DNA of 64,000 nt from Candidatus Latescibacterota bacterium (GCA_965208105.1 OZ242318.1:2976001-3040000); one strand, 5' to 3'. Shown: positions 23,510 through 49,464, counted from the first letter of the stretch. The notes: generated from the sequence alone by a model not told the origin. Made by a program: numbers and translations.

Positions 23510-24442
23510 TTATTGGCTCACCCCGATAAAGCCCCGGGTGCGGTTGTACCACCAGAGGTAGTCGAAAAAAAGATCGGGGACGTAATGATCCATGCCCCGT
23601 CGAGTGAGATAAAGCACCGGGTGGCAAACTGCGGGAGAGAGAATCGTCGAGAGAAAGAGACGGCCAGGTGAAAATCGAGGTTTTTGAAGGAAGTCAAGCC
23701 TCAGCAGTTTGGCCAGTTCTGGATGTTTCTTTAGCAATAATGGCAGAGACTTCTCTCCATAGGTGTACATCAGCTGGCAGGTCTGTTCAAAGGCCCTCAG
23801 GTGGTTGTGAAACGACAGGGCACTGGGGACAAATTGGAACGAAGCTCCCTGCAAATGAAGGCGGTACCCCAGCTCCAGGTCTTCTCCGCCGTAGGCAGTG
23901 AAATCCTCGTCGAAGAGGCCCGCCTGCAACAGTTGGCGGCGCCGCAAGGAGGCATTGCCGGTTACAAAGCACTTGAAGGGCACTGGCTGCCCTTTTTTGA
24001 TCCGGTGAACCCCGCGGTTTTCCATGTAGCGGGTCAACGCGTTGGATGGAACTCGAGTGCCGAAGCGGATATTGCCGATACAGACGGTGTTGGGTTGGAT
24101 TCGGTGCATGGCGGCGTGGGTGCTTAAAAAGTCCCTCCTTACGGTCATGTCACTATCGAGGAATACCACTACCTCGCCGGTGGCTGTTCGCAGGCCCGTA
24201 TTTCGCGCCCTGGCGCGGCCCTGATTTACCCGGTGCCGAATTATGTTTGTAGGAAAGGGAGATTTGATACGGGCAAGGCGGTCTGCTTCCAGATCAGGGG
24301 ACGCATCGTCCACTACGATAATCTCCACGGCCTCGTGGGGGTAGTCCTGATCTGCCAGACTCTTGAGCGTATCGCTCAATCTTTCAGGTTCGTCGTAAGT
24401 GGGGATGATCACGCTGAGCGAAATAGGGGGATCAGGTACCAT
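23510..24442 (-). CDS. Glycosyltransferase family 2
   Basis: SVIIPTY, VVDDAS, FLDSD, GGEDLELGYRL. Confidence 0.9.
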   Translation of the reverse strand: MVPDPPISLSVIIPTYDEPERLSDTLKSLADQDYPHEAVEIIVVDDASPDLEADRLARIKSPFPTNIIRHRVNQGRARARNTGLRTATGEVVVFLDSDMTVRRDFLSTHAAMHRIQPNTVCIGNIRFGTRVPSNALTRYMENRGVHRIKKGQPVPFKCFVTGNASLRRRQLLQAGLFDEDFTAYGGEDLELGYRLHLQGASFQFVPSALSFHNHLRAFEQTCQLMYTYGEKSLPLLLKKHPELAKLLRLDFLQKPRFSPGRLFLSTILSPAVCHPVLYLTRRGMDHYVPDLFFDYLWWYNRTRGFIGVSQ

Positions 24443-24455
24443 GAACCAACCCTTG

Positions 24456-25583
24456 TCACAGCGTTGCGTAGAGTTGAATTAGTTTTCCCGATTCTCGTTC
24501 CCAGTTGTATCTCCGCGCCGCCCGCAGAGCTGCTTCGGAATACGCCCTCAGTTTGGACTCATCTCCCAGGATGCGGCTAATGCTTCGCCTGATTGCAGCT
24601 ACATCCATGGGATCTACCACATCACCAGCTCCAGCCTTGCCGACTATGGCCTGCATTTCAGGGAAGTTGCTGGCCAGGACCGGCAGGCCGGCCATCAGAT
24701 ATTCAAAAAGTTTGTTGGGTATGGAATAGAAAAAACTTTTGCCTGTCTTCTTGATCACACACAGTCCCAGGTCAGCCGAGCAGGTATAGGAATGCAGTTC
24801 CTGAAAGGGGACTCTGGGGATGAAGTATACCCTGTCTTGGAGCCCTGCCTGGACGACCTGCTTTTTCAGTGCGGCCTCGCAGGGACCGCCGCCGATCAGC
24901 ACGAACGTCACTCCAGTGAGCCCTGCCGCTGCATCTATCTGCTCCCTCAAGCCGTTTTCTGTCAGGAACCCTCCCTGGTACAGTACGATTGGTGTTTCCG
25001 GGGGCAAGTTCAGTTCCGATCGGATTCGATCGCTTTTTTCCGGAGGTCTATAAGGAGGAAAATTCCGCAGTACGGTAACGCAGTCGAGATTATATCGTTC
25101 TTGAAGGGAATGGGCAATGGAGGGGCTGACTGTGATGGTGTGATCGACCTTCCTGATCAGAATTCTCTCCATACAAGCCCAAAAAGCTCGAATGCCGGGC
25201 CGGTGTACCAGTGAGGATTGCTCAGTCCATAATTCGTGTGAGTCGTAGATCAATGGCGCATCGAAATGTTTCGCCGCGCGCGCGGCCGGCCATAGCGTAT
25301 CCAGGTCATGGGCATGGTAGGCATCGGCCCCAAGGGTGGCGAGGAGTTGGTTTGCGCGTCGCCAGAAATCGGGGTAGGAGAATTTCAGGGAGGTTGAGAG
25401 ATTCACCGGGATCGAGTGAATTTCGAAATTTTCCCACCCCCGCAGCGGTGCCTGGTCGAAGGCTGCGGCGACAATTGAAATACGGTGACCGGCGGCATTC
25501 AATGCCGTCGCTTCTCGAAAAATTCTGAAGTCGAAGTGCAAGTTGCTGAACGCTATCATGCATATGTGCATAGATTTATACAA
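24456..25583 (-). CDS. Glycosyltransferase family 4
   Basis: YHAHDL, IYDSHE, PNKLFEYLMAGLPV. Confidence 0.9.
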   Translation of the reverse strand: MYKSMHICMIAFSNLHFDFRIFREATALNAAGHRISIVAAAFDQAPLRGWENFEIHSIPVNLSTSLKFSYPDFWRRANQLLATLGADAYHAHDLDTLWPAARAAKHFDAPLIYDSHELWTEQSSLVHRPGIRAFWACMERILIRKVDHTITVSPSIAHSLQERYNLDCVTVLRNFPPYRPPEKSDRIRSELNLPPETPIVLYQGGFLTENGLREQIDAAAGLTGVTFVLIGGGPCEAALKKQVVQAGLQDRVYFIPRVPFQELHSYTCSADLGLCVIKKTGKSFFYSIPNKLFEYLMAGLPVLASNFPEMQAIVGKAGAGDVVDPMDVAAIRRSISRILGDESKLRAYSEAALRAARRYNWERESGKLIQLYATL

Positions 25584-25803
25584 TGAAGGGGAATGGAGAG
25601 GAGAAGCTTTAAAATAGTGACGGGTTGTGGTTCAGACTTGGGGAAGTAGCTGCCGAGCCAGGTCGAATTTCCCCTGGTGAAGGGAGGGAGGCTGGCTTAA
25701 GGCCGGCGGAGCGAGACCCCGAATTTACATTGAGTCCTGGTTGGCAGCTCCTGGAGCTGCCACTGCTCCTCCAAATGCTGGGAAATAATTTCCGCATCTT
25801 AAA

Positions 25804-25843
25804 CTGAAAAGCAGCCCGTCTTTGGCGACGGGCTGCTTTTCAG
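25804..25843. terminator. Bidirectional intrinsic terminator
   Basis: CTGAAAAGCAGCCCGTC-tttggc-GACGGGCTGCTTTTCAG, a perfect 17-bp inverted repeat with A/T tracts. Confidence 0.8.
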
Positions 25844-25847
25844 GGTA

Positions 25848-26012
25848 GAGTGTGGCGATCATCTATGGCGTGATCTCAAAGACCGCAAGCAAGATTCTCA
25901 AACGAGACGGTGTGGGAAGGATTGCTTTGAAAACCTTAGAGCCCGAAAAGGGGAATTCGGATTCTGCGGTGTATTGAAAACAATCTATCACCCCCAGCGA
26001 ACCGCCACACTC
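25848..26012 (-). ncRNA. Candidate structured ncRNA (~165 nt, rod-like; possibly 6S-like)
   Basis: Ends pair (GAGTGTGGCGGT/ATCGCCACACTC). Inner helices TGGGGGTGAT/ATCACGCCA and ACCGCAG/TTGCGGT; G-U pairs favour the - strand. CATAAT sits 7 nt upstream and the terminator directly downstream. Confidence 0.5.
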
Positions 26013-26096
26013 AAGGCCATTATGTGCAAATCCGCATACTCTCCAGTGGGTGTAGTGAAGTATCTCCAGCCCATAGTAATCTATTCACGCGTGGAT

Positions 26097-26125
26097 AATT
26101 TACACACCAGGTCGTGTATTGTCAA
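26097..26125 (-). promoter_or_regulatory. sigma70 promoter with a palindromic operator in its spacer
   Basis: Minus strand TTGACA-N17-TAAATT; TACAC-N8-GTGTA at 26101-26118. Confidence 0.6.
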
Positions 26126-26260
26126 GTGGAATAGCTAGGTCCGGGCAAGGTTGAATGCCGGAAGAAATACACAAGCCAGTGTCCGAAGCGATTACACTTG
26201 CGCCTGGCTGTTTTTGGGCTAAATTACACATCCCATATGGGCAGAGCAGGCGGAAAAATA

Positions 26261-26779
26261 ATGCAATTGCAGTTTGCTGAGATGGTCAAAGAGGCAAGAA
26301 AAAAAGTGGGTTTAAGTCAGGCAAAGTTGGGGGAAAAGATCGGCGTTTGGAATACTTACGTGGGTCAGATCGAAAAGGGAGAGAAAGTACCTTCGGATGA
26401 AAAGGTGGTGAAGCTGGCAGAGGTTTTGGAGCTTAACACCGATAAAGTTCTCCTTGTGGCCTACCAGTCCAGGGCAGACTCAATCAAAGCCAAAGACCTG
26501 TTTTTCAAGATGGAAACTGCTCTCAGCGATCCAGTGCTTCAACGATTGCTCTCGACGGGAAAGCCACTTGATCCAGGTGTTTTGGAGGCCCTCGGCGATG
26601 CTGATATTTGTGAGGCATTGAGGAAAGAAGAATGGCGCCGAATGTTCGCCTTATGCTACAAAGTAGGAAAGAATCGCGATATCCCCGGCCTGGTGGCTCT
26701 GGTTTCCGCAATGAACGACCAACAATGGTCGGCGATGATGAACATTATTCAAGCCATGGGACTCGAGCTGCCAGATTGA
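26261..26779 (+). CDS. XRE-family HTH transcriptional regulator with unknown C-terminal domain
   Basis: VKEARKKVGLSQAKLGEKIGVWNTYVGQIEKGEKVPS Cro/C1 HTH. Confidence 0.88.
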   Translation: MQLQFAEMVKEARKKVGLSQAKLGEKIGVWNTYVGQIEKGEKVPSDEKVVKLAEVLELNTDKVLLVAYQSRADSIKAKDLFFKMETALSDPVLQRLLSTGKPLDPGVLEALGDADICEALRKEEWRRMFALCYKVGKNRDIPGLVALVSAMNDQQWSAMMNIIQAMGLELPD

Positions 26780-26852
26780 GTGCGGTGGAAATGATTGTCC
26801 TGCGGCCGATATTCAATTAGGTCTGCCATATTCCGGCAGGGAGATATTGAGT

Positions 26853-27113
26853 GTGAATTGTAATTGTTTTGAAATGAATGTGTCCGCATATATGGATGAT
26901 GATTTAGGGCCGCAGATGGTTCAGTGCATGGAGCAACACTCGCTGCATTGCATGGCCTGCAGCGACATTCTAAAAGGTATGTGGCAGGTTCGGATGACAT
27001 TGCAAGGCCTCCGCAAGCAAAGTCCTCCTGCCAGTTTCAAACTCAGGCTGTCAAACTGTTTGCAGGAAGCGTCATTCCCACCAGGCCGGCCTCGGCCTCA
27101 TTTGCTGGCATGA
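26853..27113 (+). CDS. zf-HC2 (ZAS) anti-sigma-like protein, no TM segment
   Basis: C...SAYMDDDL......HSLHCMAC (HxxxCxxC); SD AGGGAG upstream. Confidence 0.7.
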   Translation: MNCNCFEMNVSAYMDDDLGPQMVQCMEQHSLHCMACSDILKGMWQVRMTLQGLRKQSPPASFKLRLSNCLQEASFPPGRPRPHLLA

Positions 27114-43828: not shown

Positions 43829-43903
43829 TGCCCGGTCGTTCAACTGGCAGGACAACGGATTTTGGTTCCGTCTATCGAGGTTCGAATCCTCGCCGGGCAG
43901 CCA
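43829..43903 (+). tRNA. tRNA-Gln(TTG)
   Basis: Acceptor TGCCCGG/CCGGGCA, anticodon arm ACGGA-TTTTGGT-TCCGT, GGTTCGAATCC, encoded CCA. Confidence 0.96.
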
Positions 43904-49365: not shown

Positions 49366-49464
49366 GGGAGCGGATGCGTGCCTGGTGGTTGCCGCGGACT
49401 TCAAATCCGTTGCGGCGGCGCGAGAGTGCCGCCGGGTGGGTTCGATTCCCACACGTTCCCGCCA
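49366..49464 (+). tRNA. selC: tRNA-Sec(TCA)
   Basis: Anticodon arm GCGGA-CTTCAAA-TCCGT, TGGT D-loop, long variable arm CGGCGGCGC-GAGA-GTGCCGCCG, T arm GTGGG-TTCGATT-CCCAC, GCCA end. Confidence 0.93.

Follow-up and report, generated by a model that had tools for sequence, protein, structure and literature searches.

What does the DNA that separates a glycosyltransferase gene on the minus strand from an XRE gene on the plus strand (25584..26260) encode in a member of Candidatus Latescibacterota? The window analysed here is a stretch of 64,000 nucleotides, and a first-pass annotation of it had read this intergenic DNA as a complete minus-strand transcription unit for a structured RNA, either a 6S-like rod or a new class of small RNA, with a short ORF as an alternative explanation. 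The evidence supports a real, conserved and structured RNA gene on the minus strand, with promoter and terminator, that stands outside every described family. It represents a new RNA family, and our best reading is a small RNA that acts in trans and also stands first in a glycosyltransferase operon; an RNA of this kind is known, while the architecture of its partner is unusual. To our knowledge the Latescibacterota have no cultured members, and a literature search found no description of small RNAs in the phylum. What emerges is a well-supported RNA family whose fold is defined, whose partner transcript can be named, and for which a concrete mechanism can be tested. Positions are collected in Table 1.

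Table 1. Features of the RNA locus, its neighbours and the transcript contigs that cover it, in window coordinates
Feature	Position	Strand	Basis or remark
Small RNA, conserved core, 165 nt (P1, P1b, P2, P3, P4)	25848..26012	-	blastn conservation, consensus fold, covariation, model R1 (137 bits)
Distal promoter TTGACA-N17-TAAATT, spacer with ACAC-N-GTGT (candidate operator)	26097..26125	-	promoter scan; kept in relatives
Proximal -10-like box CATAAT	26019..26024	-	six bases before G1 at 26012
Intrinsic terminator, 17-bp stem, 6-nt loop	25804..25843	-	fold of own sequence
P1, 5' strand GAGUGUGGCGGUU, sequence nearly invariant in all genera	26000..26012	-	alignments
P1, 3' strand GAUCGCCACACUC	25848..25860	-	alignments
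P3 hairpin, conserved C-rich loop UUCCCCUU at 25948..25955	25941..25961	-	consensus fold
P4, 13-bp helix closing a 23-nt apical loop	25890..25938	-	double changes in 11 of 13 pairs
Candidate seed, apical-loop bases CCUUCCCACACCGUCUCG	25903..25920	-	complement of the transaldolase leader 5' end, G000:C1:3475410-3475473 (outside the window)
GT4-family glycosyltransferase gene, directly downstream of the RNA	24456..25571	-	
GT2-family glycosyltransferase gene, second in the operon	23510..24442	-	
XRE-type (HTH_3) regulator gene, divergent	26261..26779	+	
Contig of 166 nt, run X1	25833-25997		
Contig of 192 nt, run X2	25860-26046		
Contig of 311 nt, run X6	25860-26151		run also holds pieces of the flanks
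Contig of 174 nt, run X7	25853-26024		depth 73.8

The signals of a transcription unit are where the first-pass annotation had placed them. The TTGACA-N17-TAAATT promoter is present with 10 of 12 consensus matches in a promoter scan, and this distal promoter is the conserved one. The CATAAT box near position 26012 was found as well, and a -10-like box lies 6-9 nt 5' of the core in most genera. The terminator is a perfect 17-bp hairpin that begins 4 nt after the 165-nt core and brings the RNA to about 210 nt. It is seen in the fold of the sequence; a consensus terminator scan did not return it, most of the U run being inside the stem. Relatives have a hairpin and U run at the same place, and the claim that no minus-strand protein gene ends at this terminator held in an ORF check. 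The gene is single-copy in its own genome, which rules out a repeat or mobile element.

The consensus fold, built from 13 sequences, joins both ends of the RNA through the 13-bp P1, continues through a short P1b (GUG/CAC) and P2 (CCGCAG/UUGCGG), and opens into a three-way junction carrying the P3 hairpin and the 13-bp P4 with its apical loop of 23-27 nt. The closing stem predicted in the first-pass annotation is thus real, with 13 rather than 12 bp. Among the inner helices that it had proposed, ACCGCAG/TTGCGGT (P2) is kept with covariation and TGGGGGTGAT/ATCACGCCA survives only as GUG/CAC, while TCAA/TTGA is unsupported in relatives. The helices covary: pairing holds in 97.2% of 537 cells of the 13-sequence alignment, with double changes at 12 of the 42 pairs, values that 0 of 500 shuffles reach, and partners slid out of register pair in only 37-47%. 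In 54 distinct model-fitted sequences pairing is 94.6% and double changes are seen at 24 of 42 pairs, although this larger alignment was made to the covariance model and therefore leans towards structure. Searches with blastn against 40 relatives gave matches in 12 of the 24 same-family genomes, confined to the 165-nt segment (query 117-284, that is 26014..25847). The apical loop of P4, unpaired in both the MFE and the centroid fold, is the most conserved stretch and is nearly invariant across the core genera.

Although the minus-strand fold is stronger than chance (z-score -4.74), a single sequence cannot name the strand, because the plus strand folds about equally well (-4.90). Many of the pairs are G-U, however, which would read A-C on the opposite strand, and covariance model scores fall from 94-166 bits on the minus strand to 13-30 bits on the plus strand. 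This settles the minus strand as the one that encodes the RNA, and the earlier argument from G-U pairs is borne out by covariation and model scores on that strand.

The RNA belongs to one lineage. By model R1, 57 of 76 genomes of a single Latescibacterota family, from 16 of its 18 genera, have the RNA in exactly one copy, and it is found in none of 56 genomes from three other families of the same class and in none of 87 genomes from 13 other families sampled across the phylum. Within the family it is absent from three closed or near-closed genomes of genus g16 and from G018, G089 and G091; the closed genomes of g16 and of part of g18 are without it. Of 53 loci that a pattern scan picked out in named public genomes, 44 hold the full RNA and come from entries titled Candidatus Latescibacterota MAGs, with a few labelled Gemmatimonadota; the remaining 9 are chance matches in unrelated taxa.

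RNA libraries also contain it. Short whole contigs cover the RNA in one metatranscriptome run from each of four studies, two of them on sponge, one on marine and one on coral samples, and in three of the four runs no contig covers the flanking genes. These contigs hint at, but do not prove, an abundant small transcript, as strand and true ends cannot be read from them and DNA may have been carried over. Two of them extend upstream of 26012 and one extends past the distal promoter; the former would fit some transcription from that promoter.

The conserved loop has a counterpart elsewhere in the genome, on which the first-pass annotation was silent. The P4 loop, used as query in an initial duplex scan of the window's own genome (G000), has a 14-base perfect complement at G000:C1:3475425. 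A TTGACA-17-TAACTT promoter stands just before this site, a hairpin and U run follows right after it, and the transaldolase gene lies 140 nt downstream. The scan mostly gave sites inside ORFs, and the transaldolase leader, tenth by energy, was singled out through its context. Second exact sites at loci L131, L132, L134, L135 and L138 lie inside ORFs and were put down to chance; the best target of the P3 loop (17 of 18 bases at G000:C1:1170516) lies inside a 554-aa ORF and was dropped. A search of the 76 genomes with the 14-base pattern, one mismatch allowed, rose barely above its reversed control and was left out of the evidence.

The site precedes a pentose-phosphate gene throughout much of the family. 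It stands before transaldolase in 12 genomes (G000, G001, G003, G004, G008, G010, G012, G017, G021, G080, G081, G082) and, as judged by translation, before glucose-6-phosphate dehydrogenase in six (G013, G015, G020, G044, G045, G063), with the same coding start after the site in 8 further g13 loci; tblastn found no glucose-6-phosphate dehydrogenase gene in the window's own genome. With a leader model (R2, from alignment A4), 51 of the 76 genomes give one strong match each (E at most 2.6e-11), and the weak second matches are the antisense of the RNA's own loop. RNA and site occur together in 45 genomes (44 by model, plus G017 by eye) and neither occurs in 12. The site alone is seen in 7 genomes, all of them fragmented assemblies that are 58-89% complete, and the RNA alone in 12, which are divergent genera plus G011 and G014. 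Upstream of transaldolase in nine RNA-bearing genomes no complementary leader was found (z -2.0 to +1.1), the 16 one-mismatch sites in G011 and G014 are without promoter or hairpin and count as chance, the loop complement in four genomes was found only at the RNA gene itself, and a degenerate pattern search of genus g18 gave no partner. Since no complementary leader shows up in 12 of the 57 RNA-bearing genomes, pairing with such leaders cannot be the only or the ancestral role of the RNA. In G041 (locus L164) a run of N occupies the expected site upstream of transaldolase, and this genome was left unscored.

Where both parts are present, they fit each other closely. In the 20 genomes from which the script extracted both loop and site, contiguous pairing spans 13-22 bases in every case and at least 17 in 15, and six further g13 genomes set a site GGGAGG against a loop CCUCCC with one bulged base. 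Duplex energies range from -35 to -45 kcal/mol, with z -4.8 to -7.2 (8 genomes). The complementarity also co-varies: the window's own genus has CCGUCUC in the loop and GAGACGG in the site, whereas all others have CCGCCUC and GAGGCGG. The two genomes of that genus share this one double change; in G010 and in G012 a single base differs but a G-U pair is preserved, and genus g8 has one true loop-site mismatch. Related genomes are not independent, and the independent events are few: one double change, two that keep a wobble pair and one mismatch.

The leader unit has a simple build, consisting of a strong promoter, a 5' end complementary to the loop and an immediate intrinsic terminator. The site lies 90-170 nt before the start codon with the terminator adjoining it, and only 20-30 nt before it in genus g13. 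There the gap from the leader terminator to the start codon is just 20-30 nt, so that the gene would be reachable by read-through only. In all five cases folded, the leader alone forms a small 5' hairpin and the terminator, and no internal antiterminator was seen in these five folds. The run of six G that ends the site makes up the bottom 2-3 G-C pairs of the terminator stem. This architecture suggests an intrinsic terminator controlled by a trans-encoded RNA. Rfam has no match in three of the pentose-phosphate leaders. The transaldolase leaders (G000:C1:3475410-3475700, locus L137/L139) have a second conserved hairpin and U run, UUGCUCGG...CCGAGC UUUU, after the first terminator, and so carry two tandem attenuator-like hairpins.

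We consider it rather likely that the RNA is a lineage-specific small RNA that acts in trans by base pairing, with its seed in the P4 loop and its targets in pentose-phosphate leaders. Transcribed from the minus strand, it would have both its ends protected by the long closing stem and would present two C-rich loops from the three-way junction. The seed in the P4 apical loop would bind a pentose-phosphate leader transcript at its initial 15-25 bases; the gene behind that leader is transaldolase here and, in other genera, glucose-6-phosphate dehydrogenase. By default the gene would be off, the leader alone folding into its terminator; pairing with the small RNA would remove the base of the terminator stem, and RNA polymerase would read through into the gene. 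Default termination and pairing-driven read-through are proposed because the leader folds into a terminator, because the G run of the site lies in the base of its stem, and because of the spacing in g13. The roles of regulator and target are assigned in this direction because pairing would have a consequence at the leader terminator. An alternative effect of pairing would be protection of the 5' end of the leader from decay, as for RoxS. RNAcofold of RNA and leader gives a gain of only 0 to -1.9 kcal/mol, by a method that cannot model the pairing of a closed loop with a strand, and a 17-22-bp duplex within a hairpin loop of 23-27 nt is strained. Why P1 is invariant in sequence and the P3 loop conserved is not accounted for by the pairing model.

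The RNA is also tightly linked to the operon behind it, a link that had likewise gone without mention. It stands directly 5' of the GT4-GT2 operon, on the same strand, in 29 of 30 distinct loci, with a gap to GT4 of 60-160 nt in relatives and about 275 nt at the window's own locus, and this order is kept even where GT4 identity is only 48-52%. In nearly all loci a hairpin and U run separates RNA and gene, often with 16-50 nt from the U run to the ATG. Because a terminator stands between the two and the ATG often follows so closely, the operon is probably reached by read-through of the RNA terminator, and the RNA would then be the 5' part of the operon's own transcription unit. As side observations on GT4, no Shine-Dalgarno-like motif was found by eye before the gene (25571-25600, minus strand) at the own locus or in relatives, such motifs are used in the own genome with a peak at -11 (crude gene set), and a TATAAA box stands a few bases before the GT4 ATG in the window.

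This linkage gives its weight to the strongest competing explanation, in which the RNA would serve the GT4-GT2 operon solely in cis, as an attenuator leader to which a protein, a metabolite or another RNA binds, and the short terminated pentose-phosphate transcript would be the small RNA that acts on it. Besides the synteny and the terminator described above, this explanation can point to genus g16, which is without both the RNA and the GT4 ortholog, and to the pentose-phosphate leader unit, which with its promoter, 5' seed and terminator is built like a small RNA gene. We nevertheless regard it as unlikely. A sensor helix would be expected to have an alternative pairing with the terminator, yet in 55 sequences the 3' strand of P1 and the terminator arms are not complementary, P1 is a stable 13 bp, and no such pairing exists for the loop either. 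Binding at the loop would thus be without evident consequence at the RNA's own terminator, while the leader site touches its terminator. The RNA also persists without its gene, and the gene without the RNA. In G010 the RNA, the XRE gene and an anti-sigma-like gene are kept and the RNA has the best model score of all, although the GT4 ortholog is replaced and an unrelated 567-aa gene with another GT1-family gene lies downstream. In G001 the RNA is intact despite an insert of about 1.6 kb with a transposase-like ORF between it and GT4. In contrast, the RNA is missing from G018, G089 and G091, where GT4 is kept and lies behind another gene. The XRE gene of G001, a sister species (locus L112), is split by a frameshift and an insert of about 1.1 kb.

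A regulator of the RNA may be encoded next to it. Among the 30 distinct loci, 17 have the XRE gene as their divergent neighbour, and an inverted repeat, ACAC-N-GTGT, lies in or near the promoter in 15 of these 17 loci versus one of the 13 loci without XRE (one further locus of the 13 shows it by eye). The repeat is usually within the spacer of a TTGACA-N17-TAAATT-type promoter; the distal promoter of the window is this conserved unit of promoter and repeat, which in most of genus g13 stands right at the RNA start. Control of the RNA promoter by the XRE protein is plausible from this co-occurrence, as a hypothesis only. In loci without an XRE neighbour (L100, L101, L104-L107), the upstream motifs GTTACATTGG and CGTAACT-N-ATTG replace the ACAC/GTGT repeat, which suggests a different promoter or regulator in those genera. 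The DNA before the XRE start (26198-26260, plus strand), GTTTTTGRGCTAAATTACAC, is conserved between the own genome, G010 and G004, appears as a conserved 'VF.LNYT' in an upstream reading frame, and is probably the XRE promoter or leader. After the XRE gene an 88-aa ORF (26847-27113, plus strand) shows an H-x3-C-x2-C motif by eye and has no Pfam hit; its counterpart in G010 matches zf-HC2 (anti-sigma zinc finger), and the XRE and anti-sigma-like genes form a conserved pair.

Joined to the read-through of the RNA's terminator, such control gives a fuller version of the favoured mechanism, which we put forward tentatively, as a possibility less probable than the pairing itself. A trans-encoded antiterminator would act at intrinsic terminators and turn the pentose-phosphate pathway on, and the same RNA would be the terminated leader of the glycosyltransferase operon, its promoter probably repressed by the neighbouring XRE protein. 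If this is true, one promoter couples glycan synthesis to pentose-phosphate flux in an uncultured phylum.

The same repeats bear on another explanation, namely that the 16-19-base motif shared by RNA and leader is a DNA operator of one transcription factor, placed in opposite orientation at the two loci. ACAC/GTGT repeats are indeed shared by the RNA promoter, P1 and some leaders, and the change in the window's own genus could equally be the same change in two copies of a motif. Nevertheless, the motif falls exactly in an unpaired loop, some 100 bases into the transcribed part of the RNA gene, and two single changes preserve G-U pairing yet break DNA identity. The spacing of the ACAC/GTGT halves also differs between promoter and leaders (N6, N8, N9), and the g12 leaders are without the first half. 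We therefore hold a shared operator to be improbable.

The proposal of a 6S-like rod did not survive, and a divergent 6S-type RNA that binds the RNA polymerase holoenzyme is now a very remote prospect. The length of about 165-210 nt, the long closing stem of paired ends, the single copy and the apparent abundance in RNA libraries are all shared with 6S RNA (RF00013), and it speaks for this reading that 0 of 132 genomes of the class match RF00013, whereas control genomes do. In contrast to 6S RNA, the present RNA has a branched fold, with a three-way junction and a 23-27-nt apical loop; its conservation lies in the loops and not around a central bubble, its distribution is patchy (it is absent from the closed genomes of g16 and part of g18), and a complementary partner RNA is conserved alongside it. 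Being tied strictly to one operon is no trait of 6S either. The 6S and 6S-Flavo models (RF00013, RF01685) found nothing in 25550-26300, whether at gathering score or with E relaxed to 10, and nothing genome-wide. The class has no recognisable 6S RNA, and the RNA described here is not the missing one. As to a new class, which the first-pass annotation had also considered, no Rfam family matches: at gathering cut-offs over the whole window, and by E-value over 25550-26300, only chance-level matches came up (mir-9223 at 26 bits against a cut-off of 53, and CC0196 matching the terminator alone). The SRP RNA was set aside because it is present elsewhere in the own genome.

That the region instead encodes the 28-aa peptide (26074..25988) previously raised as an alternative has next to no probability: the ATG ORF is present in the window, but the first 62 bases are not conserved in sequence even within the genus, an ATG ORF of at least 20 aa is found in 11 of 55 relatives with none similar to it, and substitutions follow the base pairs.

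Among known systems, RsaE/RoxS of Firmicutes is close to the trans-acting small RNA favoured here, being a trans-acting RNA with conserved C-rich unpaired motifs and targets in central carbon metabolism. RoxS is described as able to pair with the extreme 5' end of a target and to activate it by blocking 5'-3' decay (PMC5419742), and the site described here is also at the extreme 5' end. However, neither sequence nor Rfam model of RsaE/RoxS matches, and the present RNA is far larger, with its 13-bp closing stem and three-way junction. It comes from a different phylum, and its site is the 5' flank and base of an intrinsic terminator rather than a ribosome-binding site. Read-through of a leader can be raised by small RNAs: according to the available part of a review, pairing of DsrA, RprA and ArcZ in the long 5' leader of rpoS, and of SraL in that of rho, has this effect and acts on Rho-dependent termination, and the same part names no trans-encoded RNA that acts on the intrinsic terminator of its target (PMC6582626). 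In contrast to these Rho-dependent cases, the site here adjoins a hairpin-plus-U-run terminator. Plasmid countertranscripts and RnaG of Shigella do act on intrinsic termination, which they induce rather than relieve. The SreA/SreB riboswitch transcripts of Listeria are terminated 5' leaders of an operon that also pair with other transcripts. They resemble the present RNA as terminated leaders acting in trans, although here there is no evident ligand-sensing aptamer and no alternative to the terminator within the leader. Elsewhere in the window, a tRNA-Sec gene lies at 49366-49460 (plus strand, 69.6 bits) and an ordinary tRNA gene at 43829-43900 (plus strand).
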